Below, one piece after another: positions 3,665 to 63,998 of a stretch of DNA of 64,000 nucleotides (within the stretch, counting starts at the first letter, position 1; every line of letters begins with the position of its first letter). The stretch is taken from IMG/VR virus record IMGVR_UViG_3300028883_000049, positions 480 through 64,479 of that record. The stretch is one strand, 5' to 3'. This stretch comes from a virus (lineage: Duplodnaviria > Caudoviricetes). The position numbers and the translations under genes were made by a program. A model generated the notes under the pieces. The model had not been told where the DNA came from and made no database searches. It saw nothing but the letters and a program-made list of their open reading frames with translations.

Positions 3665-3855
3665 CGTGTTTTACCTCTCTTTATGGCCGGTTTATATCGG
3701 ACACACTGGTCATTAGGGCAACTGCCATCTTCGGGTCTTAAAGTATGTCCACATTCTGGGCAGCGAAAATCGATCATAATCCATCCAAACTTGACAACTG
3801 CCCATCCTGCGATAATGTGTAAATTGAACTGTTACACTCACGAATGGAGGGGCTT

Positions 3856-4542
3856 ATGCGCACGATTATTTCCCTGTTTCTACTGCTGTCCGTTGCATCC
3901 GTATCCCATGCCGCTGTGATCGATGGCGTCCCGTCATGGCAAACAAACGGCGGGGCAGGGGCCGGAGCGCTGCAAATCCTCGGCTGGTACGATCTTCACG
4001 GCTACGACAACCTGTTTGCCGCCGAAGGCGAAAATATCTACACCCAGGGCGCTCTGCTCGCTGAACTCCAGGATTTCGACAGCTTCCTCAACATCAATCA
4101 ATGGGGCGGCGTCGATGGCCGGGACATTCCCCCGGCTGTCGAGGACTTTGCAGCGTTCAAGGGCTACAACTTTGCCGCCGAATACATCACCTTTTTCTTC
4201 TTTTCCTTTGAAGATTTCATGGCCGAAATTGACGCTGGACGCCCGGTCAGCATTACCACGGACAACACCGAAACAGGATTTATCCCGATTGAAGTGGCAG
4301 GTGTCGGCTATGACATGATCGACGGAGTTCCTCATTATGGGTTTATTTCCTCTCTCACTGGGCTGACCGATATCATCTGGAAACCATGGATCGAAGGATC
4401 GACCGAGTACGCTTGGGGAGTCACGGACGTCATGACCATCGCTCCACAAGCCGCCCCGGTCCCTGAACCATCGACCGTACTTCTGTTCAGTGTTGGAATC
4501 ATTGGATTGTCCCTCCGATGGAGACTGCGCCAACCTTCTTAA
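3856..4542 (+). CDS. PEP-CTERM protein with degenerate C39 peptidase-like domain (moron)
   Basis: GGAGG RBS, Sec signal ending SHA, EIDAGRPV motif, C-terminal VPEPSTVLLF-TM-RWRLR. Confidence 0.88.
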   Translation: MRTIISLFLLLSVASVSHAAVIDGVPSWQTNGGAGAGALQILGWYDLHGYDNLFAAEGENIYTQGALLAELQDFDSFLNINQWGGVDGRDIPPAVEDFAAFKGYNFAAEYITFFFFSFEDFMAEIDAGRPVSITTDNTETGFIPIEVAGVGYDMIDGVPHYGFISSLTGLTDIIWKPWIEGSTEYAWGVTDVMTIAPQAAPVPEPSTVLLFSVGIIGLSLRWRLRQPS

Positions 4543-6538
4543 ATGTTCTTTCCGTCAACGTAATCGAATCGCTCAAACTGGATGATATGTTGTTAGCAGC
4601 ATCCATCGCCCAGGCGTAAAGGGTTTTGCTGCCATAGCTGGAAAATGTGTAGCTGGTCTGTGCGCTTGATTGCCAGTCTGGATCTGATGTGCTCGGAGTT
4701 GTGGCTGATTCGTTCAGGAGGTAGTCAGTCACTGCGACATTATCCGTTGCAGTGAAGGTGTTGACTGAAACGGTTAAAGATGATCCAGTGGCCGGAATGT
4801 CGAATGCTGTGACTGTCGGGTCTGTTGTGTCTGCGCTCTCATTGACCGCCCAAACACCAAGCTCATCTATCCACATTGACTCTGATACTGGAGCACCGTC
4901 ACCAATATAAGGGGCAAGGGCTATTTTGTCCCATGTTGCCCCTTCATATTCGCCAGCGGCGTATAGGACACTCTCGCTCTCAATCGCTAAATCTTCGTCT
5001 ACCCAAAGACGCATAATTCCATCAAAATTAGCCGTCCCAGATGTAAAAGTATTCAACTTTATGTAGGATGTGATTTTTGTCCAAGTGTTTGCAGGGATGC
5101 TTACGCTGCTGGATTTCCATGTGTTTGCCGAATACCAGCCACCTGAAGAATAACAACTTCCAGAGGTTGCCCCTGTTTCTGCATACGGTGTATTACACTG
5201 ATTTGCAGACCTGGCTTCTGTTACAGAGGTCAAATCTTGTGGCGGTGTGCCTTCAGTGTCATTTACTCTCATCATGTCTTGATGAGCGATCTGAGGGTAA
5301 TTTGTATAAGGGCTGCTAGTATCTGCAAGCGCTTCAAAATAAAGATTACTGTTCGACCCTGCAAAACCCTGATAGGCCGTATCATCAGAAGATAGCACAT
5401 GTATTAAGTGCGGGTGATACGCTTGCCCTGATCCTTGCCAGCCAGTATCATATTTAACATAGTATTCAATCAAAAATTCGTCTGTTTCGGCAGACAGATT
5501 GTTTCTGATTGCACTAAACCCTGTTGGCTGCGTCGCAGAGCTTGCCCACGTCCATTTCAGAGCATTACCTGAATAGCCACCAGCCTCTGTGCCTGTCGAT
5601 GTTGTCCCATCGTACCAACTGCGACTTGTCCAGCTATCATCCTCGAAGGATTCAGAAAATAGACTTGTTCCTTTAGTCGGTATTGTTGTTAGAGGCCCAA
5701 TCCTTCCGGTTGCCGATATAGCATAGTCATCAAAATCAACAGGATTACATCCAGAACCATCTAATATCCACTCTTGGTTTGATCCGAGAAGGATTCCAGA
5801 AATACCAGTCACGGAAAAACTATCTCCACCAAAGTCAACACTTTGCTCATCAATGATCTTGGTGTCATCTATCCACATTTCAGCAATGCCATCTGTTCCG
5901 TCCGTATCTATCTTTATATGTGCCTCGTAATAATGCCATTGACCATCGCCCTCTAAATCACTATTATTCATGACGGTCGCCCAACCCTGTGAAGATGTTG
6001 GGTTTGTCACCGATCCCATCCCCTGCTTTGCAAAGACAAAACCATCAGCACCAGCCCACTCAACAATGACTTCAACGTCAGTTGAGAGTGGATACAAATC
6101 AATATAAAGGAGTTTGTCGTAATGTAAACCACTGTTTGGATCCCATTGTAGGGATGTTGGAAACTTCATGTACCACCTCACCCAAATCTCGTCTGGGTGG
6201 TCATCAAGAAGTACATACAGCCCCCCGCTACCATCGTTAGACCCTTGTGGACTACCACCATCACCATACCAGTGCCGTTGGCCTAACCCACCACTACCGT
6301 TAGGGTTGTTTGCCGAAGAGGTTATTTGTTCATAATTTCCGCAAGAGTCTGGCTGCCCAAGTGCTTCCTGAACTCCACCACAATCAATGGGGTTTCTATA
6401 ATTTGGATCGCTCTCGTCTTTTGTCCACTCCGTACACTCAGTTTCATCGAAACTTGTTGACCACGGCAAGGTGACGCCAGCAAAAACTGTAAACGGGAAA
6501 AATAGCAGTATCAAATATATGAGAGCTTTATTCAGCAT
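4499..6538 (-). CDS. Secreted acidic protein with two jelly-roll (polysaccharide lyase/lectin-like) repeats and a C-terminal Ig-like domain
   Basis: Signal peptide ending VFA; repeated pattern (VRWYMKF / IEYYVKY; DGIAEMWID / DGIMRLWVD); C-terminal ATDNVAV...YAWAMDAANNIS. Confidence 0.65.
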   Translation of the reverse strand: MLNKALIYLILLFFPFTVFAGVTLPWSTSFDETECTEWTKDESDPNYRNPIDCGGVQEALGQPDSCGNYEQITSSANNPNGSGGLGQRHWYGDGGSPQGSNDGSGGLYVLLDDHPDEIWVRWYMKFPTSLQWDPNSGLHYDKLLYIDLYPLSTDVEVIVEWAGADGFVFAKQGMGSVTNPTSSQGWATVMNNSDLEGDGQWHYYEAHIKIDTDGTDGIAEMWIDDTKIIDEQSVDFGGDSFSVTGISGILLGSNQEWILDGSGCNPVDFDDYAISATGRIGPLTTIPTKGTSLFSESFEDDSWTSRSWYDGTTSTGTEAGGYSGNALKWTWASSATQPTGFSAIRNNLSAETDEFLIEYYVKYDTGWQGSGQAYHPHLIHVLSSDDTAYQGFAGSNSNLYFEALADTSSPYTNYPQIAHQDMMRVNDTEGTPPQDLTSVTEARSANQCNTPYAETGATSGSCYSSGGWYSANTWKSSSVSIPANTWTKITSYIKLNTFTSGTANFDGIMRLWVDEDLAIESESVLYAAGEYEGATWDKIALAPYIGDGAPVSESMWIDELGVWAVNESADTTDPTVTAFDIPATGSSLTVSVNTFTATDNVAVTDYLLNESATTPSTSDPDWQSSAQTSYTFSSYGSKTLYAWAMDAANNISSSLSDSITLTERTFKKVGAVSIGGTIQ

Positions 6539-8693
6539 GGATGGCAACCCCTATCGCGACGTTACCTCCAGAAGCAGAAGTAAATGTTTTTGAAATGCTT
6601 CCTGACAAACCTGTTTGGTAGTATGCGCCGAGCGATGAACTGCCAGAAGAGTCATAACTTATCTGCGTCAATCCGTCATAATCACTCAAAGATATGCCTC
6701 CATCATCTGACCCAAAAAGACCTATAAATATATCAGCTGAAGAAGTTGTTACCGAGCCTGTGCTAACTGTCCCTGTCGCTGTGTTGGAGTTGTAGCCGCT
6801 TATTGACCAAGACCCTGATGTCTTTGAATATCGAGCAACAACAGCATTCAAATATGTCCCACCTGTTTGTCCAAATGTGTAATCAGTTGGCTCGCTACCA
6901 GTTGCAATTTTGTAGGCAGTTGTCATGTTTGATGATCCGTTAGCAATGCCACCAGATGTAATCTCTGTGTAGCCATCAAAGGTATCCCAAGCCCCTGACG
7001 CATCGCTCACAAGATAAGCAAACAGCAAATCGCCTTCTGTTGTACCCGTTGGTTTTGTCACTGTAATTGATTCAACACCGCTGCTGGTGGCATTGGCGGC
7101 GTAGCTTTCATAGGCTAAAGTAACGCTCCCACTCTGCGTACTGTTATTCGTCACGCTCCCACTGGTGATCGAAGCAAGGTCATCCCCTGCAGAGTCTTCC
7201 CAACCGTCCCCAGGTTGTGTGTAGTCAACGTCACATGTATCGCCGCTATTAACTGTCGAACCGAGGGTATAAACAAGCGTGTCTGTCGTATCTCCGCTTG
7301 AGTAGGTCATGGTTATATCTGTTCCGGCTGTCGTACAATCGAGATTCCATCCACCATTTCCACCAGTACCGATAGTGATTGCTTCGGACGCAAGCAAGGA
7401 GATTGTCGCTCCGGTCGTTGGGATTGTGGCGCTGGTCAGCGTTGGTGGTGTTGGTGTTGGATTCGACCAGTCGGCAAATGTGACCGGGTAGCGATCCCAT
7501 GAGTCTGTTGATTCGCAGAGATAGATATAACTGGTGTCGAATGATCTTTGTCCGGTCGTGCAAGTATCATCACTGTAAGTCGGAGCTGTGACATAACCAG
7601 ATCCAACAGATACAGCGTCAACCTCGTCTTTTAGCTCTTCAATCGCGGCTTGGACATTGGCCGATGTGATTGTCAAATAGGTTGTAAATGGCACTTCACC
7701 AGCATTCTGATCATCCGTCCCCGCTGATAAGGGAGCCCAACTCGATCCGTTGTAGATCTGGAATACAAACGATGAATCGAGGTAAACATCTCCAGCGGAG
7801 GGCGTGAATGTTGGCGCGATTGAATTGTAGAAATTAGCGTAATGCTCACCGTCTGAAGCGGAACTCTCAAAACTCGGGGCCGATACCGCACCGGTGAAAG
7901 TTGCTCCGGTTAAGGCTGCATAAGTGCTATCATGATTATGGCTCAGTAAACTGTAAAACCCAGCATGATCGCCCCAGCTAAAAGCGGTATCCCAATTAAC
8001 CTCCTGTGTCGGCGTCGGGAAAACTCTCGTTGCGGTTTCAGCCAGATCATCAGCATCCAGCACAACCACGCCGGTCTGTCCGTTGACCGAATCGACAGCG
8101 CCAGATCCGGTCATGTCAGCGCAGGCCCAAACAAACCCATCCCACGCGGCCACCTGGCTGGCCGTACAATTCAGATTTTCGAGTGTATCGGTCGTATCAA
8201 CAATTGTGTTCGGATCGGCACAGGTCCAGGCACCAGCATCCTTATAGGGCACCTCACCATCGACACAGGCAGGCAGTGAGTCGCCACCACTGGTTTTCCA
8301 GTCTGTTCCAAGCACAGAATCAATCGCGGCAATGATCTCGGTCGGTGTCATATCGCCGGTCGCGTTCGCTTCGATTGCATTGAGTTTTGACAGTAGGTCA
8401 TTAGTCAGAGCGTTTGTGTCGGCTTCACCCTCATAAGCCGTTTTGATACCAGACCCGTAAGCGTCAACAATGGTCTGCACAGCCGTTTGGATATCGCCGG
8501 ATTCGATCAGGGCGAATATTCGCGATAGCGGGACCATGTACCTGGAGGTCGAATCTGCCGAGGCAATAACACCGGTTGCGACAACCGCGCTATAGTCCCG
8601 CTGCTCCCAATCGGTCGGGGCAATCTCATTCGTTTCGGCAAAAACCGAACCCGCAAACAAACACATCAAAAAGACAATAAACAGTTTTTTCAT
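6528..8693 (-). CDS. Ser/Thr-rich fibre/adhesin-like protein with signal peptide and SwmB-like domain
   Basis: MKKLFIVFLMCLFAGSVFA signal; fibre motifs VDSVNGQTGVVVL and NVQAAIEEL; PTLTSA...VDYTQPG...DSAGDDLAS segment. Confidence 0.65.
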   Translation of the reverse strand: MKKLFIVFLMCLFAGSVFAETNEIAPTDWEQRDYSAVVATGVIASADSTSRYMVPLSRIFALIESGDIQTAVQTIVDAYGSGIKTAYEGEADTNALTNDLLSKLNAIEANATGDMTPTEIIAAIDSVLGTDWKTSGGDSLPACVDGEVPYKDAGAWTCADPNTIVDTTDTLENLNCTASQVAAWDGFVWACADMTGSGAVDSVNGQTGVVVLDADDLAETATRVFPTPTQEVNWDTAFSWGDHAGFYSLLSHNHDSTYAALTGATFTGAVSAPSFESSASDGEHYANFYNSIAPTFTPSAGDVYLDSSFVFQIYNGSSWAPLSAGTDDQNAGEVPFTTYLTITSANVQAAIEELKDEVDAVSVGSGYVTAPTYSDDTCTTGQRSFDTSYIYLCESTDSWDRYPVTFADWSNPTPTPPTLTSATIPTTGATISLLASEAITIGTGGNGGWNLDCTTAGTDITMTYSSGDTTDTLVYTLGSTVNSGDTCDVDYTQPGDGWEDSAGDDLASITSGSVTNNSTQSGSVTLAYESYAANATSSGVESITVTKPTGTTEGDLLFAYLVSDASGAWDTFDGYTEITSGGIANGSSNMTTAYKIATGSEPTDYTFGQTGGTYLNAVVARYSKTSGSWSISGYNSNTATGTVSTGSVTTSSADIFIGLFGSDDGGISLSDYDGLTQISYDSSGSSSLGAYYQTGLSGSISKTFTSASGGNVAIGVAIHAE

Positions 8694-8703
8694 GACTCGC
8701 CCT

Positions 8704-8859
8704 TTACTGGTTAAAAGCCCAGGGATACTGATTAAGAGGAACATCCTGCTGATTGAAAGCCATCACCATTGTCGGCACCTGCAAGCCTTCCGGCGGCAAA
8801 TCAACCTCAATCTCCACATGGTATAAGTTACCGTCGGTTTCAATCTCGATATCAATCAT
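8704..8859 (-). CDS. Small hypothetical protein (51 aa; not in ORF track)
   Basis: MIDIEIETDG...WAFNQ; start overlaps the upstream stop. Confidence 0.5.
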   Translation of the reverse strand: MIDIEIETDGNLYHVEIEVDLPPEGLQVPTMVMAFNQQDVPLNQYPWAFNQ

Positions 8860-9193
8860 GAGCACCGCTCCCCTCTCTCACCCGCGCAAAGATAGAACCC
8901 AACCGGAACCAGCTGCTGGACGTCCCCTGGTCGGTTAGAACATCAACCTGAGTCGTTCCCGCCTCATCTCCGGCAGCAACGTCAACCACAATCGCCGGAG
9001 TCACAGCATCGACCGAAATACCCCCGTACAACAACGATCCATCAGCCTGTTTTGCTGGTGCCGAAAATGACCAGCCGCTGATATCCGGTGCCGATTCCCC
9101 AGACGGCGGAACCAGGACAATTCTCACGCGGATATTTTCATTGGTGTGAACCTTCGGGCGTACCTTGAACGCTCTATACTCGTCATAGTCCAT
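8852..9193 (-). CDS. Hypothetical beta-rich structural protein
   Basis: Translationally coupled within the late operon. Confidence 0.55.
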   Translation of the reverse strand: MDYDEYRAFKVRPKVHTNENIRVRIVLVPPSGESAPDISGWSFSAPAKQADGSLLYGGISVDAVTPAIVVDVAAGDEAGTTQVDVLTDQGTSSSWFRLGSIFARVREGSGAHD

Positions 9194-10719
9194 CAGTGTC
9201 CCCTCTTCCAGTTGCGGTAAACCTTTTTCACCGCGTCATAAATCGTGTCAGCCGAAATATTCACCGCGCATCTGGCCGCGCCCGACATCTCATCGATGTT
9301 GCAAAACGCGTCGCCGTAATGCAGCCGGTGACACGGATAGCACGGGCATTGTTCCGGTGTTAGCGCCTGCACGTTCGACCAGTGTTTGGTCAAGTTATTT
9401 TTAGATGAATGCGACAGCATGATCACCTTGTGCGGCGTCTTTTCCATACCAACCGCGTTCAGCACGCCCGTTTCAGGCCCGATCACTAGGTCAACGTTCT
9501 GCGCCAGAACCAGAGATTCACGGATTGTCAGCTCACCCGAAAGACACGAAACCCGACCCTCGTTTTCCCAACCCTGCTCAAGGACCCGGCACTTATCATC
9601 ACCCACCAGGTAAATCTGAGCATCCGGCATCTCCAGCAGAATACGTGCGATCACCGTGTCCTGGTGTGGTGTAAACTTATGGATCGAACTCCCGGCCAAA
9701 GCCCACACCACGTTAAATTCATTTTTGTTTAATTGCTGCTTGGCAAAAAACTCTTCTTCCCGTGCGGCATAAAAAAGCTGCGTTACCTCAAACTCCACCC
9801 CGGCCAGTTGACAGGTCCATTCGTGATAGTTCAGGTTCATCCGCTTCTTGCGCACATCATGCGGCCAGGTATGATTCGGTCGTCCCGGTATCGCCAGCAG
9901 CGTTCCCTCAATTGATTCAGACAGGTTGATAAATTTAGCAAAGCGCTTTTCCTGCTCTGCCCAAAATGCTACCAGCTCATTGTTTGGAACCTGATCCTGA
10001 TCAACGATATACCAGTCATCAATAAAAGGATCGTTGCGTAAAACGTTTTGCCCCTTCGGCGTGGTCATCACCGTCACATGGTATCCCTGCTCTTTTAAAC
10101 GCGGGAACACCAGCGCCGTCTGCAGCATATCGCCGAACCCGCCGAACCGGCAGACGCAAACCTTCGGTTTATTCGGCTCGCCGATTCCCGGCTTCACAAC
10201 CATATCCATCCCCGGCTCAAGCTTTTGATAAGCCTCGAACAGGCTGTACTCGATTCCACCGCTCCGCTCTTCGCATTCGACTTGTTGCCATGCCCCCTCC
10301 AGCAACTTTTCGATATCGCCTGGATAGATATCGTGCTTATGGTCCGGATTCGCTCCCGGCTCCCCGCACTTCGGATACAGGTTCGCGCTCGGCACGTACA
10401 GGCACAAATACCCGCCCGGCTTGATCACCCGGCCCCACTCGGCCAGCGCCGCGCCCATATCCGGCATGTGCTCCAGCAAATGCGACGTGAAAACAAAGTC
10501 CAGGCTGTCATTCGCAAACATCGATAAGTCATCAGCCTCGGACACGATATCCGCCGCGCCCTGACCGAAATGGTGCCCATTGTCGATCCCGATAAAATGC
10601 GGATAGGCTTTTTCCATGCCACAGCCGATCTCCAACCCCCTTCCCCTGGTATACCGGGGAAGAAGGTATTTGATCTTGCGACTTTCAAAACCCTGCGGAC
10701 CGTCAATTGACCAAGACAT
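9193..10719 (-). CDS. Class I SAM methyltransferase / glycosyltransferase family 9 (heptosyltransferase-type) fusion
   Basis: N-terminal GLEIGCG and FTSHLLEH; C-terminal RFGGFGDML, VIGPETGVLNA, CPCYPC...C...C. Confidence 0.85.
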   Translation of the reverse strand: MSWSIDGPQGFESRKIKYLLPRYTRGRGLEIGCGMEKAYPHFIGIDNGHHFGQGAADIVSEADDLSMFANDSLDFVFTSHLLEHMPDMGAALAEWGRVIKPGGYLCLYVPSANLYPKCGEPGANPDHKHDIYPGDIEKLLEGAWQQVECEERSGGIEYSLFEAYQKLEPGMDMVVKPGIGEPNKPKVCVCRFGGFGDMLQTALVFPRLKEQGYHVTVMTTPKGQNVLRNDPFIDDWYIVDQDQVPNNELVAFWAEQEKRFAKFINLSESIEGTLLAIPGRPNHTWPHDVRKKRMNLNYHEWTCQLAGVEFEVTQLFYAAREEEFFAKQQLNKNEFNVVWALAGSSIHKFTPHQDTVIARILLEMPDAQIYLVGDDKCRVLEQGWENEGRVSCLSGELTIRESLVLAQNVDLVIGPETGVLNAVGMEKTPHKVIMLSHSSKNNLTKHWSNVQALTPEQCPCYPCHRLHYGDAFCNIDEMSGAARCAVNISADTIYDAVKKVYRNWKRGH

Positions 10720-11201
10720 TAAGCTTTTCCACCCTGTTGTAGATCCAGCTGTTCGTCAGTGCTTGAAGCCACCCCAACGTTTTTCTTTCCCCTGCTCGTG
10801 GTTTTCTTGTCGGTTTGTGCGGTCTCGTCCGCCTTAACATCAAGCTCATCGATCAGACCGTTCAAGCGCTTGATTTCAACCTCAGCCGTATCAAGCTGTC
10901 CCTGAACTTCAGCTTTTTCCGCATCGGCATTGTCCTTGTCGGCAACAGCCCGCTCAAGCTGCTCTTTCAGCTCAGCATTCTGCTTGCCAAGTTTTTCAAT
11001 CTCGGCAACCAATACAGGGACCTTGGCGTCATCGACAACCACGGGAGCCTGAACCTCAATCGATTCAATCTCCTCCTGCCCAGGCAGCTCTTTTCCTTCC
11101 ACGTCGAACAGAATTCCGAACTGCTCGTAGGCCGCACGACCACTGCCATAAACCTGGCCGTATGGTGCGTTTTTATCAAGCTTACGCTTTCCCTTTGCCA
11201 T
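10719..11201 (-). CDS. Phage hypothetical coiled-coil protein
   Basis: 160 aa ORF with AAGGAG RBS, coupled to the GT9 gene. Confidence 0.6.
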   Translation of the reverse strand: MAKGKRKLDKNAPYGQVYGSGRAAYEQFGILFDVEGKELPGQEEIESIEVQAPVVVDDAKVPVLVAEIEKLGKQNAELKEQLERAVADKDNADAEKAEVQGQLDTAEVEIKRLNGLIDELDVKADETAQTDKKTTSRGKKNVGVASSTDEQLDLQQGGKA

Positions 11202-11253
11202 ACGCGTTTCTCCTTAACATGGTTTAAAATAAATAAACTCGATAAGCCACTAA

Positions 11254-11430
11254 CTACTTATCACTCTTGGTCGCATCGCCGATGCCTTGACGGTCGGTGT
11301 ACCCGCGTTTCAGCCCGCCTTTACCGGCTCCGTAAGTATCTTCAACGCCCGTCGAAACACCCCGGTCCGGCAAATCCCGCCCGTGACATTTTCCATCCGG
11401 CAAACGTTGACCGTTTTTGTCGCCACTCAT
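11254..11430 (-). CDS. Small Gly-rich protein after capsid (58 aa; not in ORF track)
   Basis: GAGGAG RBS; MSGDKNGQRL...KSDK. Confidence 0.5.
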   Translation of the reverse strand: MSGDKNGQRLPDGKCHGRDLPDRGVSTGVEDTYGAGKGGLKRGYTDRQGIGDATKSDK

Positions 11431-11450
11431 GTTTCACTCCTCTTCGTTTT

Positions 11451-11494
11451 AAAAGGTGGGCTGGGAGAACCCGTCTCCCAACCCTATTTCATCA
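11451..11494 (-). terminator. Probable terminator after the capsid gene
   Basis: Minus-strand hairpin GGGTTGGGAGA...TCTCCCAGCCC followed by ACCTTTT. Confidence 0.5.
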
Positions 11495-11502
11495 GCAACC
11501 GA

Positions 11503-12441
11503 TCAGGCTGCAGAATCCCACTTGACGATCCGCTCATCAGCAGCGGCCAGGCGGTTTTTCGCGTACCCGCCAAGGTAGTACCAGGCCACCCCGCGACTGC
11601 GGCCATAATCCCCCGGCAACTTACCGCGCACCTCTTCAGGCACCGCAATGCCCTCACTGGTCGCATCTTCACCGAAGAAGAAAATCCAGTCACTGCCCCC
11701 ATTACTCCAACTCCCCTTGGCCACATGGGTTTGCTCCACATAGCGGGTGTTTTCATAACGTCCGATCTCGCCGTTCATGATCATCTGGAAACCCTGGGGC
11801 GTATACTGGTGTATCCCCTCCAGATCGTTCTTAAACGTGCGCAGCGTGGTCGGCCAGGCAATCCCCATATAATCGTCACCCATGTATGGCGGAATATTCC
11901 GCTCCTTCATCAGGTCGACAATCGCTTTAGCATGGTCCTTGTTGAACGCCACATTGTTGGTTGCCGTTGCCGTCCCGTTCAGGGTCAGGGTTACGGCATC
12001 GGTCGCCGTTCCGCCGGTCGGCACAACCCGCAGCAAAGTGCTGTTCATCTGCGCGTGGTTAGCGATATCGAACGCCTTCTTCGCGTCGTTCTTCATCGCC
12101 GTGTTCACCAGGTTACGCACCGGGATCTCCGAAAGATCATCCAACACGCCAGTGTACGGTACGCTGTTCCCGTATTCCGTCACCGTCATGGTTCCCTGGG
12201 TGATTGTGAAGTTTGTTTCCGGCATGGTACTGGTTTCCGTCAACACGGTCCCCTGCGTTGCCACGTCAGAAACGACATCCCAATGAAAGAGCTGCCCTTT
12301 GTGCTTGCCGACTGCATCATGCAGACTGGCAAACTGGCGAAACTTCACCATCGGCTGCACCACGTTGCGCAGCTCTCTTGAAAGGTTTTTGGCGCTTAAA
12401 TAACCGCCAAGGGTGTTTGTCACCCAAAGCTGTCCAGCCAT
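11503..12441 (-). CDS. Major capsid protein (N4-gp56-like HK97 fold)
   Basis: Position after the scaffold; GGAGG RBS before MAGQLW; VTEYGNSV, GEIGRYENTRYVE, DYGRSRGVAWY motifs. Confidence 0.85.
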   Translation of the reverse strand: MAGQLWVTNTLGGYLSAKNLSRELRNVVQPMVKFRQFASLHDAVGKHKGQLFHWDVVSDVATQGTVLTETSTMPETNFTITQGTMTVTEYGNSVPYTGVLDDLSEIPVRNLVNTAMKNDAKKAFDIANHAQMNSTLLRVVPTGGTATDAVTLTLNGTATATNNVAFNKDHAKAIVDLMKERNIPPYMGDDYMGIAWPTTLRTFKNDLEGIHQYTPQGFQMIMNGEIGRYENTRYVEQTHVAKGSWSNGGSDWIFFFGEDATSEGIAVPEEVRGKLPGDYGRSRGVAWYYLGGYAKNRLAAADERIVKWDSAA

Positions 12442-52855: not shown

Positions 52856-52864
52856 TGTATCCTC

Positions 52865-54487: not shown

Positions 54488-56108
54488 TCACCAACTCCTT
54501 TTCGCTGGTCGCAATGGCGATCAGCGACCAGGGAACAGACCCGGCCACCTGGTATTCGCAATCCTTCGACTTGAATCCGCCCGGCAGCTTGAACGGGTCG
54601 GATGAACTGACCGTCCGTTCCTTTTTCAAATTGCCCCCGCTCCAGAAGCTGAATGTCAGCGGGTAGCTTTCGGCCAGCACCCGACCGCAGGTGAACCCGG
54701 TCACATCCGGCAGGAAAAATTTTTTGCCCTTCCATTGCTGCGCCAACGCAGATCCCGCATCCCACAACTCGATCCCGGTTGTTGTAATGACATACAGATC
54801 GCCCGTCGCCTGGTTGGTAAACCCGCCCGTCGCTGCAACCTGGTGATAGGTTAAATCGCCCGTCGCCGGATCGAAAATAAAACCTTCAGTGCCGGTCACG
54901 GTATTATCCCAGAACGCCACATAACGACCGTTCCAGTTGTAGGCATGAATCGTCTCCGGTTCCATAGTCTTCCAGTCCTCCGGGTCGATCAGGTCCTTGG
55001 TCAGCAGCTTCATTTCTGTCATACCGGCCATCCGCAGGCCGTCCACCGCCGGGTAAATCAACGAGTAACCCATGTCCACCATGCCCCGCGCCGCCACGCA
55101 GGCATAGCCCTCTTCCGCTTTTTCCGGGTTGCTCATCGCCTCCGGCGTCGGAACCGACACCAGGTAGGCCGGTCCATCAGTCGCAATCAACACATAGTTC
55201 CCATAGGCCCCATGGGCCAACGGTGTATGAGTGATCGCCACCCGGTAGCCCACCGGCCACGCATGGGGCTGGTACGGCTCAGACAGGCACAGCGTGTTCC
55301 CGCTCAGTCCGGCGAAGCTGCCATTCGGCAGCTCAATCATACTGTGAAGATCGTCCGGCGGCATGTCATATGTCGCTGTCGCCAGCACACTCCCCAAGCT
55401 GGCCGTGGCACAATCATCATCGATTGACGATGCTGTGAGCGGGATTAACCCGCTGGAATAAGCCGACGGGTAAACCAGTTGATAATCCGTATCCTCGCTT
55501 CCTGTGCTGGTCCGGTACAGACGCAAATGGGTGATATTGTAATTTCCCGAAGGCACCGCCGGGATATTACTGACCGTAACACTCTGCCCTGGTGCCACAT
55601 CCACGGAAAGCGAAACCGGCCCGTTCGGCCCTTCTTCTCCATAAGCGGAGACATAGGTAAACAGGTAATAACGCGTCTCCACCTTGGTCGGATCATCGTC
55701 CGTAATCGTCCCCGTTACAACCAGCGTCGGTTCCACGGTCGGAGTCGGGACGCCAAGATCCCAACTCGAACCCGGCCAGTCGATTCCCGCATTGGCCATC
55801 GCTGCTGTAGCATATTGCGGTGCGAACTCGTCCCCACCGGCAAAATAAATCCGCCCGTGCTGATCGTTCACCACCGGGCTGCGGCACACACTTACCGGTG
55901 TGATCCAGTTCAGCCAGGTACCCTGATTCAGAAAAATTGACACCGCACCCGCTTTACTCGGAGCCTCAACAAACGTCGGCGCTTTCAGCGGACGCATCCG
56001 GCCTGGCACAGGGACGCAATTGATCGCAATCTGTGCCATGTTGTCGGCCAGCACCGTCGCATCGATGGACGGTGCCAGCCCCTTCGGGTTCAGTGTCTGC
56101 AGTCTCAT
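54477..56108 (-). CDS. Tail nozzle / stabilisation protein
   Basis: R.Y..TYV...GEE, FN-like insert, SEPY.PHAWP, WKGKKF. Confidence 0.7.
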   Translation of the reverse strand: MRLQTLNPKGLAPSIDATVLADNMAQIAINCVPVPGRMRPLKAPTFVEAPSKAGAVSIFLNQGTWLNWITPVSVCRSPVVNDQHGRIYFAGGDEFAPQYATAAMANAGIDWPGSSWDLGVPTPTVEPTLVVTGTITDDDPTKVETRYYLFTYVSAYGEEGPNGPVSLSVDVAPGQSVTVSNIPAVPSGNYNITHLRLYRTSTGSEDTDYQLVYPSAYSSGLIPLTASSIDDDCATASLGSVLATATYDMPPDDLHSMIELPNGSFAGLSGNTLCLSEPYQPHAWPVGYRVAITHTPLAHGAYGNYVLIATDGPAYLVSVPTPEAMSNPEKAEEGYACVAARGMVDMGYSLIYPAVDGLRMAGMTEMKLLTKDLIDPEDWKTMEPETIHAYNWNGRYVAFWDNTVTGTEGFIFDPATGDLTYHQVAATGGFTNQATGDLYVITTTGIELWDAGSALAQQWKGKKFFLPDVTGFTCGRVLAESYPLTFSFWSGGNLKKERTVSSSDPFKLPGGFKSKDCEYQVAGSVPWSLIAIATSEKELVSER

Positions 56109-56875
56109 TGCGGCGGCCTTTCACGTTCGGCGTTACGCCTCAACAGCGACATATAATTCTTATCGTTCGCCATCTCCACCCCGATAGCATTACCAAACGC
56201 CTGCAGCCGTCCCGCCGCCCGCGTCTCGTTCACCGCGCTGGTGCCGTCCTTCAATAGCGCCCGGAACGTCACCCACTCGACAATCGCCTCTTCCAGCTCA
56301 TCCGCCAGATCTGCGTCAAGGTCGGCGGTTGAATCGTCAGCACTTAAACTGGTCGCCGCCTTCGTCAGCGTATGAACCGGCTGGCGCGAACACAGCAGTT
56401 CGACATAATGCGCCGTCGCCGGAGCCTTATGACACACCTGGAACGCCTTCGGTTCGCGCTCGTCGATCACCGCCCAGCGGATGAATTTTTCCGCGCTCAG
56501 CGTGTGCCAGTCCGGCAGCAGGATATCCAGCTTCGCCGGATCGATCTTAATAATCGCCCTACCTGGAGTCGCCCCGTCGGCACCCATGTTGCGCGAAACA
56601 TCCAACAGCTGCAGCGGGGTAAAGTTGCTCAGGTCTTCACCGGCAAGATCCTTGAATGCCGCACCGCTCATGTTCTGTCGCGTGCTTCCTGCGGTCAGCA
56701 GCATCGACACCCGCCTGGTCAACTCCGTCGGCTTCAGCTGCACGATCTTAAGACATGCCTCAATAATATAACGGGCGATCTCGTTGATCGTGGTCCGCTC
56801 GAACTCGTTACCCGCCTCAATATCGTTCATCAGCATGCCGACTTTGCGGCCAATCGAATAACTGGACAGCGCCAT
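56105..56875 (-). CDS. Tail adaptor protein (DUF6682-like)
   Basis: LLDVSRNM...LD...PDWH...D...P..F...RAL.KD. Confidence 0.7.
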   Translation of the reverse strand: MALSSYSIGRKVGMLMNDIEAGNEFERTTINEIARYIIEACLKIVQLKPTELTRRVSMLLTAGSTRQNMSGAAFKDLAGEDLSNFTPLQLLDVSRNMGADGATPGRAIIKIDPAKLDILLPDWHTLSAEKFIRWAVIDEREPKAFQVCHKAPATAHYVELLCSRQPVHTLTKAATSLSADDSTADLDADLADELEEAIVEWVTFRALLKDGTSAVNETRAAGRLQAFGNAIGVEMANDKNYMSLLRRNAERERPPQ

Positions 56876-56876
56876 G

Positions 56877-57488
56877 TCAATAATCCTCCATCGCTTCCTG
56901 GTTGATCGAATCCGCCATCAGCTGCTCCTCGTTCAGTTGCTGCGAAGTCAACACCCCGTCCACCTGCGACTGAATCACCGTGGCAAACCCGGCTTCGCGT
57001 ACCGCCGCGACACCAAGCTGCAACACCGAAGAGCAGGCGTCGACAAACACTGAATCGAACATCCCGTAAAACGGCAGGTCTTCGTCAAGGTCCGTGGGCG
57101 CATCGGGCCGCTCGTAAACCGGGACCGTGATCACCGTGTCTTCTGCCGGAGCAGGAAAAACCTTCAGTTGCTTCCCCATTGTCCGGTAATACTGTGGAGT
57201 ATCGTCATCCAGCACCGGATCTTCCTTGCCCTTCAGCAGCTTCAGCTTCGTCCCGTCCGCCAACGCTGGACGTCCGGCGATATCGATACACTCGTCCGGC
57301 AGAAACTTGCGCCCCTGGCTGGCCTTGAACGTCAGCTCCAGTGGATCTTCAGCAACCAGGTGTTCCGAGCGCTTGAAATACAAATGACTGACAATCACAT
57401 CCTGGACCGCCGTGACCGCCTCGAATATGGTACAGGTCGGCTCCTTGACTTTCAGGACCACCCGGTTGAACACATCGTTAATCGTCAT
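56877..57488 (-). CDS. Probable head-tail adaptor protein
   Basis: PQYY...VFPAP; position. Confidence 0.55.
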   Translation of the reverse strand: MTINDVFNRVVLKVKEPTCTIFEAVTAVQDVIVSHLYFKRSEHLVAEDPLELTFKASQGRKFLPDECIDIAGRPALADGTKLKLLKGKEDPVLDDDTPQYYRTMGKQLKVFPAPAEDTVITVPVYERPDAPTDLDEDLPFYGMFDSVFVDACSSVLQLGVAAVREAGFATVIQSQVDGVLTSQQLNEEQLMADSINQEAMEDY

Positions 57489-57768
57489 CAGCTACTCCGA
57501 TAATCTTAAGATCGTCATCGATCTTTAGCAGCGATTCGCATTCAGGACAGATTGATATACAATCACCCTCAGGCGTTTCGACCATGGTCAAATGCTCATG
57601 GCAAAAATATCCCTCGCACGAATAGTCCTGCTCCCCGTGCATCCCTCCGCAAGCGTGAGCAAGCCCCCGGTCGATTTCCCGATTGCAGCCCGGATGGTCG
57701 CACGTCCCGTCAAAGCTGTAGCCTATCGGCCTGCCTTGACTATCTGTTCCGCAGTTTCCCCATCCCAC
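57478..57768 (-). CDS. Cys-rich phage protein
   Basis: RPIGY...CDHPGC...IDRGL...CGG.H...C..YFC..H. Confidence 0.65.
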   Translation of the reverse strand: MGWGNCGTDSQGRPIGYSFDGTCDHPGCNREIDRGLAHACGGMHGEQDYSCEGYFCHEHLTMVETPEGDCISICPECESLLKIDDDLKIIGVADDD

Positions 57769-58467
57769 TTATCGGGCCGCAAGGTTTGCATTTGAAATCA
57801 GAGCCATGTCGTACCAGGCACCAAACTTCTTATATTCCGGCGTTTGCTCAAACTCACGGCGGCCTTCTTCCAGAAGCTTTCGCAATTTTGCCTTATACTC
57901 GTTGACCAGAAGTTTTTCATCGGTCTCAGCTTCCGCCCTGGCAATTGCGCGGTCGATATCTCTATCCAAGGCTTTCATATAGCTATAGAGCAGCGTTGAG
58001 GCTGGCCTTTCTACGATACCAACAACCCCAAGCCGCGCAGCCGACGCCTTTTTCACAGCTCGAATCACCGCCTTGATGATCACCAGCTTACGGCCAGGAT
58101 CAACCACACCCTTGACCTCCAACTCATTCACAGTTTTAGCCTTGATCACGTTGTAAAGCTCAACAGCAGACAGTTTTTCGTTCGCCGTCAACTCAAGTTT
58201 ATCGATTTTCTCTTGAACCGTCCCGTCAAGGTCAGCCAACAAAACAGATTCGTTATCCATCTGGCCCAACAGCGCCGTCGATACAGCATAAGCCGGAGCA
58301 ATCGCCTGCGGCATAGCTGTCAACGCCCCACCGACCGCTAGGTTGATAATGCTCTGCTCTACGGCATCCACCTGCCCGTCAATGGTGATCAACCCACCTT
58401 TTCCGGCGCAGCCTGAAAACATCAAAACAAATCCAATCAGCACAACAAACATCAACAGTTTTTTCAT
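57769..58467 (-). CDS. Lipoprotein
   Basis: Signal peptide with lipobox FSGC. Confidence 0.65.
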   Translation of the reverse strand: MKKLLMFVVLIGFVLMFSGCAGKGGLITIDGQVDAVEQSIINLAVGGALTAMPQAIAPAYAVSTALLGQMDNESVLLADLDGTVQEKIDKLELTANEKLSAVELYNVIKAKTVNELEVKGVVDPGRKLVIIKAVIRAVKKASAARLGVVGIVERPASTLLYSYMKALDRDIDRAIARAEAETDEKLLVNEYKAKLRKLLEEGRREFEQTPEYKKFGAWYDMALISNANLAAR

Positions 58468-58487
58468 GGTCTTCTCCTTTATCGGCG

Positions 58488-58811
58488 TTAAATATCCACC
58501 TCAAGTAACTCAATAGTTTGACCTGCGAACTCGTGATTGCAATCAGGCAAAAACTGAACTTTTCCATCGTTCACAAAAGAATGACACCTGAAATTATGGC
58601 CTTTAGTTAATATGCTCGGTTTCAATGTCGGCTTTTCCGTGTCCCCATTCCAAGACCAGCATGGTGTTCCTCTGCGCGTCGCACTTCCATGAACAACCGG
58701 CAGCCTGATACATCCAGACGGTCCAGGAACACGCAACCACACGTGCGTTGCGCAACCCGGCTCACAAAACACTTCCCCGGTTTCCGTCGCTTTTGTCGGT
58801 TGCGCTTTCAC
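58488..58811 (-). CDS. DUF6527-like phage protein
   Basis: WSWNGD.EKPTL.PSIL...CHSFV.DG..QFL.DC.H..AGQT. Confidence 0.7.
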   Translation of the reverse strand: MKAQPTKATETGEVFCEPGCATHVWLRVPGPSGCIRLPVVHGSATRRGTPCWSWNGDTEKPTLKPSILTKGHNFRCHSFVNDGKVQFLPDCNHEFAGQTIELLEVDI

Positions 58812-59314
58812 GCTGCGACCCCCTGCTTAACCAGCACTTTCTCCATCCGCTTATGATCATCCCTCATCCATGGCCACCAGCCGCCAACACGCACACCGGA
58901 CCACACCAGGGTCGCCCGCCAGCGTTCAATATCAAAGTGAACACACATAGCAAACAAAAGAGCGTCCCCGAAAGCCCTGGTGATACTCTCATCGTAGTTT
59001 TCCCACTCCAGCGTACTGTCATTCAACACCTGGAACTCGCCGACCGGCATCACCCCTTTATACTTGTAAATCAGGTCATGAGGCAGGGCTGGAGTGTCCA
59101 TCACCCCGTGCGGAGCCAACCCCAGCAGAGTCCAGGTTAAGCGTGGGATACTGGCTCCGTCGATGATCGTACCCTCTACCAACAACAGGCGATAGGTTTT
59201 ATCTTTATGAATAAAAACCAGCCAGTCGGTCTCGTCCAGGCAAACCAACCTCCGCCCGACAGAATGAAATGATAGCGCCACTTCCGGCTCAAGTATCGTG
59301 ATTTCAGCTCTCAT
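58808..59314 (-). CDS. DUF1353-family protein
   Basis: DGASIPR..W...A..HD..Y...D.L...VRVGG. Confidence 0.8.
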   Translation of the reverse strand: MRAEITILEPEVALSFHSVGRRLVCLDETDWLVFIHKDKTYRLLLVEGTIIDGASIPRLTWTLLGLAPHGVMDTPALPHDLIYKYKGVMPVGEFQVLNDSTLEWENYDESITRAFGDALLFAMCVHFDIERWRATLVWSGVRVGGWWPWMRDDHKRMEKVLVKQGVAA

Positions 59315-59478
59315 TGTTTCGGCTCCGGCAAACCGAAAACCCGGCGATAAATCGCCCTGACCCGGTTCCATGCCGCCTTCGTTTTGTCCGACCCGAACTT
59401 GTTGACACCCAGCGTAATCGCCGGAGCCGCAGCCGGTATAAGCACCAGAAACAGCCATTGCCAATCAAAATTATTCAT
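59311..59478 (-). CDS. Small membrane protein, possible holin (55 aa; not in ORF track)
   Basis: AGGAG RBS; MNNFDWQWLFLVLIPAAAPAITLG...; ATGA overlap with DUF1353. Confidence 0.45.
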   Translation of the reverse strand: MNNFDWQWLFLVLIPAAAPAITLGVNKFGSDKTKAAWNRVRAIYRRVFGLPEPKQ

Positions 59479-60267: not shown

Positions 60268-62263
60268 ATGTTCTTTCCGTCAACGTAATCGAATCGCTCA
60301 AACTGGATGATATGTTGTTAGCAGCATCCATCGCCCAGGCGTAAAGGGTTTTGCTGCCATAGCTGGAAAATGTGTAGCTGGTCTGTGCGCTTGATTGCCA
60401 GTCTGGATCTGATGTGCTCGGAGTTGTGGCTGATTCGTTCAGGAGGTAGTCAGTCACTGCGACATTATCCGTTGCAGTGAAGGTGTTGACTGAAACGGTT
60501 AAAGATGATCCAGTGGCCGGAATGTCGAATGCTGTGACTGTCGGGTCTGTTGTGTCTGCGCTCTCATTGACCGCCCAAACACCAAGCTCATCTATCCACA
60601 TTGACTCTGATACTGGAGCACCGTCACCAATATAAGGGGCAAGGGCTATTTTGTCCCATGTTGCCCCTTCATATTCGCCAGCGGCGTATAGGACACTCTC
60701 GCTCTCAATCGCTAAATCTTCGTCTACCCAAAGACGCATAATTCCATCAAAATTAGCCGTCCCAGATGTAAAAGTATTCAACTTTATGTAGGATGTGATT
60801 TTTGTCCAAGTGTTTGCAGGGATGCTTACGCTGCTGGATTTCCATGTGTTTGCCGAATACCAGCCACCTGAAGAATAACAACTTCCAGAGGTTGCCCCTG
60901 TTTCTGCATACGGTGTATTACACTGATTTGCAGACCTGGCTTCTGTTACAGAGGTCAAATCTTGTGGCGGTGTGCCTTCAGTGTCATTTACTCTCATCAT
61001 GTCTTGATGAGCGATCTGAGGGTAATTTGTATAAGGGCTGCTAGTATCTGCAAGCGCTTCAAAATAAAGATTACTGTTCGACCCTGCAAAACCCTGATAG
61101 GCCGTATCATCAGAAGATAGCACATGTATTAAGTGCGGGTGATACGCTTGCCCTGATCCTTGCCAGCCAGTATCATATTTAACATAGTATTCAATCAAAA
61201 ATTCGTCTGTTTCGGCAGACAGATTGTTTCTGATTGCACTAAACCCTGTTGGCTGCGTCGCAGAGCTTGCCCACGTCCATTTCAGAGCATTACCTGAATA
61301 GCCACCAGCCTCTGTGCCTGTCGATGTTGTCCCATCGTACCAACTGCGACTTGTCCAGCTATCATCCTCGAAGGATTCAGAAAATAGACTTGTTCCTTTA
61401 GTCGGTATTGTTGTTAGAGGCCCAATCCTTCCGGTTGCCGATATAGCATAGTCATCAAAATCAACAGGATTACATCCAGAACCATCTAATATCCACTCTT
61501 GGTTTGATCCGAGAAGGATTCCAGAAATACCAGTCACGGAAAAACTATCTCCACCAAAGTCAACACTTTGCTCATCAATGATCTTGGTGTCATCTATCCA
61601 CATTTCAGCAATGCCATCTGTTCCGTCCGTATCTATCTTTATATGTGCCTCGTAATAATGCCATTGACCATCGCCCTCTAAATCACTATTATTCATGACG
61701 GTCGCCCAACCCTGTGAAGATGTTGGGTTTGTCACCGATCCCATCCCCTGCTTTGCAAAGACAAAACCATCAGCACCAGCCCACTCAACAATGACTTCAA
61801 CGTCAGTTGAGAGTGGATACAAATCAATATAAAGGAGTTTGTCGTAATGTAAACCACTGTTTGGATCCCATTGTAGGGATGTTGGAAACTTCATGTACCA
61901 CCTCACCCAAATCTCGTCTGGGTGGTCATCAAGAAGTACATACAGCCCCCCGCTACCATCGTTAGACCCTTGTGGACTACCACCATCACCATACCAGTGC
62001 CGTTGGCCTAACCCACCACTACCGTTAGGGTTGTTTGCCGAAGAGGTTATTTGTTCATAATTTCCGCAAGAGTCTGGCTGCCCAAGTGCTTCCTGAACTC
62101 CACCACAATCAATGGGGTTTCTATAATTTGGATCGCTCTCGTCTTTTGTCCACTCCGTACACTCAGTTTCATCGAAACTTGTTGACCACGGCAAGGTGAC
62201 GCCAGCAAAAACTGTAAACGGGAAAAATAGCAGTATCAAATATATGAGAGCTTTATTCAGCAT
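60224..62263 (-). CDS. Secreted jelly-roll/Ig protein, second copy
   Basis: Protein identical to 4499-6538. Confidence 0.65.
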   Translation of the reverse strand: MLNKALIYLILLFFPFTVFAGVTLPWSTSFDETECTEWTKDESDPNYRNPIDCGGVQEALGQPDSCGNYEQITSSANNPNGSGGLGQRHWYGDGGSPQGSNDGSGGLYVLLDDHPDEIWVRWYMKFPTSLQWDPNSGLHYDKLLYIDLYPLSTDVEVIVEWAGADGFVFAKQGMGSVTNPTSSQGWATVMNNSDLEGDGQWHYYEAHIKIDTDGTDGIAEMWIDDTKIIDEQSVDFGGDSFSVTGISGILLGSNQEWILDGSGCNPVDFDDYAISATGRIGPLTTIPTKGTSLFSESFEDDSWTSRSWYDGTTSTGTEAGGYSGNALKWTWASSATQPTGFSAIRNNLSAETDEFLIEYYVKYDTGWQGSGQAYHPHLIHVLSSDDTAYQGFAGSNSNLYFEALADTSSPYTNYPQIAHQDMMRVNDTEGTPPQDLTSVTEARSANQCNTPYAETGATSGSCYSSGGWYSANTWKSSSVSIPANTWTKITSYIKLNTFTSGTANFDGIMRLWVDEDLAIESESVLYAAGEYEGATWDKIALAPYIGDGAPVSESMWIDELGVWAVNESADTTDPTVTAFDIPATGSSLTVSVNTFTATDNVAVTDYLLNESATTPSTSDPDWQSSAQTSYTFSSYGSKTLYAWAMDAANNISSSLSDSITLTERTFKKVGAVSIGGTIQ

Positions 62264-63998
62264 GGATGGCAACCCCTATCGCGACGTTACCTCCAGAAGC
62301 AGAAGTAAATGTTTTTGAAATGCTTCCTGACAAACCTGTTTGGTAGTATGCGCCGAGCGATGAACTGCCAGAAGAGTCATAACTTATCTGCGTCAATCCG
62401 TCATAATCACTCAAAGATATGCCTCCATCATCTGACCCAAAAAGACCTATAAATATATCAGCTGAAGAAGTTGTTACCGAGCCTGTGCTAACTGTCCCTG
62501 TCGCTGTGTTGGAGTTGTAGCCGCTTATTGACCAAGACCCTGATGTCTTTGAATATCGAGCAACAACAGCATTCAAATATGTCCCACCTGTTTGTCCAAA
62601 TGTGTAATCAGTTGGCTCGCTACCAGTTGCAATTTTGTAGGCAGTTGTCATGTTTGATGATCCGTTAGCAATGCCACCAGATGTAATCTCTGTGTAGCCA
62701 TCAAAGGTATCCCAAGCCCCTGACGCATCGCTCACAAGATAAGCAAACAGCAAATCGCCTTCTGTTGTACCCGTTGGTTTTGTCACTGTAATTGATTCAA
62801 CACCGCTGCTGGTGGCATTGGCGGCGTAGCTTTCATAGGCTAAAGTAACGCTCCCACTCTGCGTACTGTTATTCGTCACGCTCCCACTGGTGATCGAAGC
62901 AAGGTCATCCCCTGCAGAGTCTTCCCAACCGTCCCCAGGTTGTGTGTAGTCAACGTCACATGTATCGCCGCTATTAACTGTCGAACCGAGGGTATAAACA
63001 AGCGTGTCTGTCGTATCTCCGCTTGAGTAGGTCATGGTTATATCTGTTCCGGCTGTCGTACAATCGAGATTCCATCCACCATTTCCACCAGTACCGATAG
63101 TGATTGCTTCGGACGCAAGCAAGGAGATTGTCGCTCCGGTCGTTGGGATTGTGGCGCTGGTCAGCGTTGGTGGTGTTGGTGTTGGATTCGACCAGTCGGC
63201 AAATGTGACCGGGTAGCGATCCCATGAGTCTGTTGATTCGCAGAGATAGATATAACTGGTGTCGAATGATCTTTGTCCGGTCGTGCAAGTATCATCACTG
63301 TAAGTCGGAGCTGTGACATAACCAGATCCAACAGATACAGCGTCAACCTCGTCTTTTAGCTCTTCAATCGCGGCTTGGACATTGGCCGATGTGATTGTCA
63401 AATAGGTTGTAAATGGCACTTCACCAGCATTCTGATCATCCGTCCCCGCTGATAAGGGAGCCCAACTCGATCCGTTGTAGATCTGGAATACAAACGATGA
63501 ATCGAGGTAAACATCTCCAGCGGAGGGCGTGAATGTTGGCGCGATTGAATTGTAGAAATTAGCGTAATGCTCACCGTCTGAAGCGGAACTCTCAAAACTC
63601 GGGGCCGATACCGCACCGGTGAAAGTTGCTCCGGTTAAGGCTGCATAAGTGCTATCATGATTATGGCTCAATAAACTGTAAAGCCCGGCATGATCTCCCC
63701 ACCCGTAAGCTGCGTCCCAATTAGACTCCTGTGTTAATGTCGGAATGGCATACGTTGCCCCGTCAGCGATATCGTCAGCCGTTAAAGCGGCGATAGCTGC
63801 CGTTATTTCAGAGTCACGAGCGATGGCGGCGGCGATAGCGGCATCATCAATCAGGCCATCATCGTTGATGTCGTAGACGGATTTGAGCATGTCACCAGAA
63901 CCGCTACCGGCTTCATCCCTGACCTCCTGGATTGCTGCTTGTACGTTTGTCGCCGAGATACTGCCCTCCGGGGTAAACGGAACACCCGCAGCCGACTG
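62253..63998 (-). CDS. Fibre/adhesin-like protein of phage A; C-terminus shared with 6528-8693, N-terminus different; runs off the window
   Basis: Frame open to the window edge (QSAAGVPFTPEGSISATNVQAAIQEV...GDMLKSVYD). Confidence 0.7.
   Translation of the reverse strand, partial: QSAAGVPFTPEGSISATNVQAAIQEVRDEAGSGSGDMLKSVYDINDDGLIDDAAIAAAIARDSEITAAIAALTADDIADGATYAIPTLTQESNWDAAYGWGDHAGLYSLLSHNHDSTYAALTGATFTGAVSAPSFESSASDGEHYANFYNSIAPTFTPSAGDVYLDSSFVFQIYNGSSWAPLSAGTDDQNAGEVPFTTYLTITSANVQAAIEELKDEVDAVSVGSGYVTAPTYSDDTCTTGQRSFDTSYIYLCESTDSWDRYPVTFADWSNPTPTPPTLTSATIPTTGATISLLASEAITIGTGGNGGWNLDCTTAGTDITMTYSSGDTTDTLVYTLGSTVNSGDTCDVDYTQPGDGWEDSAGDDLASITSGSVTNNSTQSGSVTLAYESYAANATSSGVESITVTKPTGTTEGDLLFAYLVSDASGAWDTFDGYTEITSGGIANGSSNMTTAYKIATGSEPTDYTFGQTGGTYLNAVVARYSKTSGSWSISGYNSNTATGTVSTGSVTTSSADIFIGLFGSDDGGISLSDYDGLTQISYDSSGSSSLGAYYQTGLSGSISKTFTSASGGNVAIGVAIHAE

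Follow-up and report, generated by a model that had tools for sequence, protein, structure and literature searches.

Does a complete temperate phage genome that lies between two direct copies of one gene cassette, with pieces of another phage-like element on either side, correspond to a molecule that exists in nature, or was it written by an assembler that passed twice through the same sequence? The question is raised by IMG/VR virus record IMGVR_UViG_3300028883_000049 (Duplodnaviria; Caudoviricetes), a single contig of 64,479 bp, of which we analysed bases 480-64479; this whole stretch of 64,000 nucleotides is called the window, and coordinates are window positions unless a contig is named. 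The enclosed phage is referred to as P1, the second element as P2, and the P2-type flanks to the left and right of the enclosed unit as X and Y. An initial annotation of the locus had proposed either a true phage-phage cointegrate or a walk of the assembler through the repeat; the geometry does match that of a single crossover exactly, but the evidence favours the assembler walk.

A direct repeat spaced by one phage genome

Self-BLASTN of the window returned a sole self-match, a direct repeat of 4176 bp that pairs 3834-8009 (copy A) with 59559-63734 (copy B) at 99.569% identity, with 18 mismatches and no gaps, and a repeat search agreed with it on the spacing of 55,725 bp. The repeat is far beyond chance and is present in the record as deposited. 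Its mismatches occur only at the edges, five of them in 3882-4029 and 13 in 7946-8000, and all 18 lie no more than 196 bp from the left border or 64 bp from the right border. The core between them (4030-7945, in copy B 59755-63670) extends over 3916 bp with no mismatch; position 63670, where the initial annotation had ended the feature, is the last base before the right-edge mismatches. Near-identical DNA matches to phage records were not found for window 1-12000 and 40000-64000, and an exact 32-mer of the core was absent from the viral contig and genome contig collections.

From left to right, the window consists of flank X (1..3833, with the record extending 479 bases further left); copy A, whose left edge adjoins X and whose right edge leads into P1; the unique part of P1 (8010..59558, 51,549 bp); copy B, which is entered from P1 and leads at its right edge into Y; and flank Y (63735..64000, 266 bp, minus strand), which holds the P2-type fibre N-terminal part of an open reading frame (ORF; 62253-63998) that is open at the contig end. 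The unique part plus one repeat copy makes a circular map of 55,725 bp, within which we found one non-redundant phage gene set by scanning 75 ORFs against PHROGs and 23 against Pfam, and the two direct copies flank exactly one copy of this inner genome. Self-BLASTN and the family scans together thus bear out the earlier description of a whole 55,725 bp phage bracketed by a direct repeat. The accompanying phrase 'nested in a second phage' fits the geometry but is overstated, as the record includes no more than 4.6 kb of the second element (4312 bp to the left of the unit and 266 bp to its right). Long direct terminal repeats and the overlap of a circular contig were rejected as sources of the repeat, because X and Y lie outside it and the contig has no terminal overlap.

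Parental arrangements in independent contigs

A scan of metagenome contigs with the 682 amino acid (aa) protein encoded in the cassette gave four loci, and 47 window proteins were compared by tblastn with 15 loci (L002-L016). Both outer flanks are found together in L002, a complete independent metagenome contig of 5837 bp. Its positions 1-824 are 94.8% identical to window 64000-63177, which covers Y and the right edge of the repeat, and its positions 3090-5837 are 96.0% identical to window 4832-2085, which covers X and the left part of the repeat, while positions 825-3089 show no likeness to the window. Encoded in L002 are a Y-type fibre N-terminus (93% identity), the PEP-CTERM protein of the cassette (99%), the 93 aa ORF of X (98%), the lipase (96%) and the end of the serine integrase (100%), together with a receptor-binding protein that is another allele and in which only the last 110 residues are alike (94%). 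This layout implies that X and Y are parts of the same element, P2, where a single cassette sets them ~5 kb apart and P1 does not intervene, and that position 3834, at which X meets the repeat, is a junction native to P2.

Where the two repeat copies differ, L002 agrees with copy B at 10 of the 13 right-edge sites and with copy A at two of the five left-edge sites. Judged by these letters, copy B has a right edge of P2 type; the left edge is a mixture that does not assign copy A to a type. A hybrid make-up of the right border is expected of a crossover and of a walk through the assembly graph alike.

The order of P1 is informed by L006, a 17 kb viral contig whose terL is 76% identical to that of P1. 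In this contig the homologue of an adaptor-like tail gene comes directly after the 508 aa gene of the head module, two genes that are 47 kb apart in the window. This adjacency indicates that the head and tail modules of P1 are natural neighbours and that the circle closed through one cassette copy is the native order of P1. L004 and L005 share no DNA with the window and were left aside, and L015 and L016, which are relatives of the serine integrase, have no other P1 or P2 gene except one repressor-like match and are uninformative on P2 architecture.

Junctions and depth in public metagenome runs

Window 1-10000 is represented in the contigs of two marine-sediment metagenome runs, X1 and X2, with shares of 0.96 and 0.80 of its sampled words. 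Each run has a contig with copy-B letters at five of the five left-edge sites that extends leftward into 30 letters equal to those of window 59529-59558; in X2 this contig, which leads from the left side of P1 into the cassette, is 7460 nt long. On the other side, a 27,721-nt contig of X1 starts at 7916 and passes across the right edge of the repeat into P1 with no differences. The X-side contig diverges from the window after 3798 in both runs, 36 bp before the repeat, and X branch points in run contigs lie at 887, 1047, 2503, 2679, 3074 and 3658, from which it follows that X belongs to a micro-diverse population. When the ten loose-end strings listed were looked up in the record, one mapped, to window 59529-59558, and nine were not in the record; compared with L001-L016 (L001 being the record contig), these nine gave a single match, of 24/30, to the end of a 69 aa ORF. 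Copy-A letters of 3882-4029 were not seen in X1 or X2 contigs, a result that we do not count as evidence because such contigs drop rare variants.

Contig mean depths in X1 were 48.9-50.5 for X, 64.6 and 62.9 for the core and 70.7 for P1; those in X2 were 93.8 for X, 287.7 and 321 for the core and 321.5-514.7 for P1. The ratio of core to P1 is ~0.9 in X1 and 0.6 to 1 in X2, where a cassette present twice per P1 would give ~2, and the ratio of X to P1 is ~0.69 in X1 and 0.2-0.3 in X2. A cointegrate should show its inner genome and its flanks at equal depth and its shared segment at double that depth, a stoichiometry that the contig mean depths do not display; the parts of the contig are unequal in abundance. 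The comparison of depth inside and outside the unit that the initial annotation had proposed as a check therefore comes out, on contig means from two runs, with X rarer than P1 and the core close to P1, which favours the assembler walk.

A probable chimeric assembly path and its rivals

We consider it most likely that the contig is a chimeric path through a short-read metagenome assembly graph, drawn from two phages that share a cassette. P1 and P2 would be separate, co-occurring genomes of a marine-sediment community with a common host-range cassette, which in P2 would lie between that element's own fibre N-terminus (Y) and its 93 aa ORF, lipase and serine integrase (X). The assembler would have entered the shared node from X and exited into P1, travelled once around the P1 circle, met the node again and exited into Y, and such a path would write the cassette twice and enclose P1. 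The base-perfect core is accounted for because one graph node used twice gives identity by construction, and the repeat is identical where the node is shared, with divergence starting at its ends. A graph walk likewise explains why copy B has a P2-type right edge, why abundances are unequal, why there are junction contigs with P1 only and a contig with P2 only, and why the record ends 266 bp after copy B. Each parental arrangement exists alone, P2 in L002 and P1 in the run contigs and in L006. The nested phage-in-phage molecule is probably not real, and we infer that the X-to-P1 and P1-to-Y linkages occur in no molecule, just as we infer the behaviour of the assembler. The case resembles known assembly chimeras formed via a shared graph node, in which two genomes stand in one contig, the switch points fall at the ends of a region of 100% identity, the parts are unequal in depth and each parental arrangement is seen separately elsewhere; it differs in that the path here closes a full circle, such that the shared region appears twice and a whole genome seems nested.

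Several points weigh against the chimeric path. A single crossover between P1 and a cassette-bearing P2 would give exactly this sequence, and the copy-A letters in the record's 3799-4029 mean that some reads joined X to the cassette. No contig or read spanning a whole repeat copy was seen, and the run contigs break inside the repeat. These contigs were compared over window 1-20000, a range with X, copy A and the adjoining part of P1, and the results are those of the contig pieces listed, next to which stand a further 70 pieces, 14 loose ends and 74 differences. Both runs consist of short-read contigs, which drop rare variants and show presence, not absence, and their depth is one mean per contig and not a copy number, in runs that may not be the source of the record.

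One rival, a real cointegrate between circular P1 and a P2 genome or prophage through one homologous crossover in the identical 3.9 kb core, strikes us as unlikely. The geometry is exactly that of such a molecule, with P1 between two hybrid cassette copies, in circular permutation and with its single-copy phage attachment site (attP) unused; copy B shows P2 type at its right edge (10/13 in L002), and copy A no clear type at its left edge (2/5). A report on marine Sulfitobacter phages discusses recombination between similar temperate phages and unstable tandem polylysogens (PMC7305329), and the homologous recombination of temperate phages with resident prophages, with transient tandem polylysogens, is covered in two sources (PMC3945230, PMC7305329). 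The crossover put forward in the initial annotation is of this kind, in that a shared identical stretch is needed and a direct repeat flanks the incoming genome; the present case departs from it in that no physical evidence of a joint molecule was found here and in that depth argues against the cointegrate as the main form. Beyond the core that lacks the expected doubling and the X flank that falls below P1 in both runs, further points speak against it: in both runs the contigs coming from X depart from the window's sequence at 3798, the middle 2.3 kb of the cassette differs in L002, and a P2 with the full identical core was not seen outside the record. A cointegrate would also exceed the ~55-61 kb size class of P1 and its relatives and would presumably not be packageable whole. 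The more specific scenario of a true molecule, in which P1 entered an unrelated resident prophage-like P2 in a sediment bacterium by homologous recombination in a freshly shared 3.9 kb cassette, as a minor or sample-specific form with both integrases idle, is in our estimation improbable; if a cointegrate were true, it would be a record from nature of one phage entering another independently of attachment sites.

Some phages have two sets of receptor-binding genes, and both cassette copies are in the record as deposited, which is what one real phage of more than 64 kb would require if its cassette had been duplicated segmentally with an X and Y segment inserted between the copies. We nevertheless hold this to be very improbable: the contig ends do not overlap, L002 connects Y to X by way of a cassette and not directly, the core depth is not doubled, and the P1 relative L006 is without such an insert. 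A tandem double lysogen, with two prophages side by side at one attachment site, would place two integrases in one contig as observed here, but one border of the unit falls at a domain boundary within the fibre gene and the other where the PEP-CTERM gene begins, and neither at an attachment (att) site. Hybrid att sites would be expected at these borders, whereas the att core is single and internal, with no second copy at 3834 or 59559. We rejected this arrangement because its borders are not att sites, and regard it as scarcely credible.

If the contig is an artefact, as the chimeric path would have it, it carries a caution: genome length is overstated by contigs of this kind, which also give the impression of dual-integrase phages and of duplicated host-range genes that are carried by no virus. 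This assembly error can be recognised by a long exact repeat that is non-terminal and whose copies are one genome length apart. Two things are real regardless of origin: the complete 55.7 kb genome of an uncultured temperate podovirus-like phage, and the occurrence in one sediment community of two different mobile elements with one and the same receptor-binding cassette, a finding indicative of a shared host and of recent exchange. What is real is ordinary, namely mosaic cassette sharing between two temperate elements and an uncultured phage genome.

The shared receptor-binding cassette

The cassette consists of a PEP-CTERM protein gene, the gene for the 682 aa protein and the C-terminal two thirds of a tail fibre gene, and in P1 it lies within the late operon, between the head genes and the tail genes. 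The P1 tail fibre (738 aa; 6528..8744, minus strand) is crossed by the right border of copy A (8009) at about residue 245; the N-terminal part is encoded beyond this border, in DNA specific to P1 (8010-8744). The P1 and copy-B fibres share 97% identity over residues 226-738 of the former and have unrelated N-termini. Phages exchange receptor-binding cassettes (tail fibre or tailspike) in which a conserved N-terminal anchor is joined to an exchangeable C-terminal part. The present cassette is like such mosaic exchanges in that the border of the shared segment falls inside the fibre gene (~residue 245 of 738) between unrelated N-termini, and in that the 682 aa protein has other alleles in L002 and L003, in which its C-terminal end is conserved. 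It is different in that it adds the PEP-CTERM gene on the opposite strand and in that its two carriers have different integrase classes and hold the cassette at different points of their genomes.

The 682 aa protein (4499..6547, minus strand) is a probable tailspike or depolymerase-like receptor-binding protein, a function assigned from its position; it gave a weak Pfam match to Polysacc_lyase_14 at 26.3 bits, just below the cut-off of 27. Relatives of it were not found in viral contigs, and of 15 pattern stretches in genome contigs none was confirmed.

The PEP-CTERM protein (232 aa; 3844..4542, with its copy at 59569-60267, plus strand) matches Pfam PF07589 at 26.9 bits (cut-off 20.7), and the left border of the repeat lies 10 bp upstream of its ATG. 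Compared with L002, the gene has 21 nucleotide but only two aa differences, which argues that this frame is under selection; an overlapping minus-strand ORF differs at 15 of 200 aa. A phage-borne PEP-CTERM protein suggests a host with an exosortase system.

The P2-type flanks

Flank X holds, on the plus strand, the C-terminal part of a 353 aa protein (phrog_21683 in PHROGs) and a large serine recombinase of ~500 aa (887-2371; Pfam Resolvase, 63.5 bits; phrog_95, E 3.4e-56). The latter qualifies as a large serine integrase, with a Zn_ribbon_recom match of 21.0 bits that stays below the cut-off of 25.3. On the minus strand follow a class-3 lipase (2657-3355; Pfam Lipase_3, 112.5 bits) and the 93 aa ORF (3383-3664). 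Y contains the beginning of a fibre gene, and the N-terminus encoded there is unrelated to the P1 fibre N-terminus. Of the outer features claimed in the initial annotation, a different integrase and a distinct fibre N-terminus are thus present, but the lysis genes are not supported, as PHROGs and Pfam scans gave no match to a holin or endolysin family in X.

The attP of the serine integrase, which had been reported as intact together with that of P1, was not located, and in the spacer 2372-2656 Rfam returned no tRNA match and only a hairpin (2534-2608). A string resembling a tRNA D-arm was noted by eye on the minus strand at ~2476-2491, without Rfam support. Among the run contigs, one of X1 departs from the window's sequence at 2503, and contigs of X2 stop at 2515 and 2679. 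The spacer may serve the serine integrase as its att region, or may be a hot spot of recombination.

The record contig starts exactly at the ATG of the 69 aa membrane-protein ORF (L001 1-210), as if trimmed at a gene boundary. The X1 letters before 887 match the end of this ORF (L001 181-210) at 24/30, which suggests a P2 variant without the 353 aa gene. The last base of the record is the first base of L002, as if both assemblies had broken at the same branch point.

The enclosed phage P1

By its gene content, P1 reads as one coherent, complete temperate, podovirus-like phage with a circular map. On the minus strand, its genes follow the order terS, terL, portal, major head protein and 508 aa protein, then fibre and 682 aa protein, and onward DUF1353 protein, adaptor-like protein, internal virion protein, a 3737 aa polyvalent protein and amidase. 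The packaging and head module (9193..19155, minus strand), assigned with PHROGs and Pfam and syntenic in L006-L013, comprises terS (18493-19155), terL (16869-18506), portal (13880-16024), major head protein (11503-12507) and, at its end, the 508 aa protein with an N-terminal methyltransferase domain (9193-10719). The tail and ejection module (36984..59464, minus strand), assigned in the same way, includes the DUF1353 protein (58808-59464), the adaptor-like protein (56877-57488), the internal virion protein (54477-56108; phrog_511, E 1.1e-119) and a 700 aa protein. Between the tail and lysis genes lies the 3737 aa ORF (36984-48197, minus strand), with matches to InPase (175 bits) and LPD1 (73 bits) and a weak match to ART-PolyVal; by these domains it is a 'polyvalent protein', probably a virion-borne one. 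The lysis region (35723..36972, minus strand) encodes an amidase endolysin (35723-36202; phrog_822, E 1.8e-20), a 187 aa coiled-coil protein and a 64 aa crAss001_48-related protein.

The lysogeny module (32322..35532, plus strand; PHROGs and Pfam) combines helix-turn-helix repressor-like genes with a tyrosine integrase (34429-35532; phrog_1, E 8.4e-43; Pfam PF00589 Phage_integrase, 88.6 bits). A candidate attP core follows at 35606..35637 (plus strand), a single-copy sequence resembling the T-arm and 3' acceptor end of a tRNA or tmRNA, putatively tRNA-Ala. It contains a tRNA 3'-end-like 25-mer (35612-35636) that lies 80 bp past the integrase stop and has one copy in the window with up to three mismatches allowed, and none of 100 shuffles matched; the alignment with the T-arm and acceptor part of the Rfam tmRNA model was weak (16.3 bits, E 0.44). 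Because the tRNA-like 25-mer is single-copy and sits next to the integrase, the attP of P1 is plausibly intact and unrecombined, and of the two attP sites described earlier as intact it is this one that is supported.

The internal virion protein has 363 matching records, and among the 12 matches listed identity is 32-34% over 87-99% of the length; these 12 are phage records of 57.1-60.9 kb, a size that fits the 55.7 kb genome of P1. P1 is thus like the ~57-61 kb temperate short-tailed phages of Ralstonia, Aeromonas and Vibrio and the Stx-converting phages in phrog_511, size class and temperate lifestyle; it differs from them in its terL, which has no cultured relative above 26% identity and at most ~26% identity to any phage record. 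The closest relatives of P1 are uncultured contigs, with terL homologues of 40-76% identity at nine loci. As judged from these protein comparisons, P1 is only distantly related to any isolated phage.

Some minor features of P1 were also recorded. The 508 aa methyltransferase-domain protein has 50-69% identity in L006, L007, L008 and L010. An X2 contig skips 150 bp at 16411-16562, a P1 variant without most of a 55 aa ORF that lies there between a 129 aa and an 80 aa gene, upstream of the portal gene. ARAGORN called a tRNA-Arg(gcg) at 48063-48151 (plus strand), inside the 5' end of the 3737 aa ORF; at gathering score, Rfam gave no RNA family anywhere in the window, and the call is probably false. 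In the early region, heptose-pathway-like genes lie at 24617-26540 (minus strand), where a 469 aa protein has a C-terminus like that of a heptose kinase/adenylyltransferase (phrog_7878, E 2.6e-30) and its neighbour shows weak matches to phosphoheptose isomerase and HAD.

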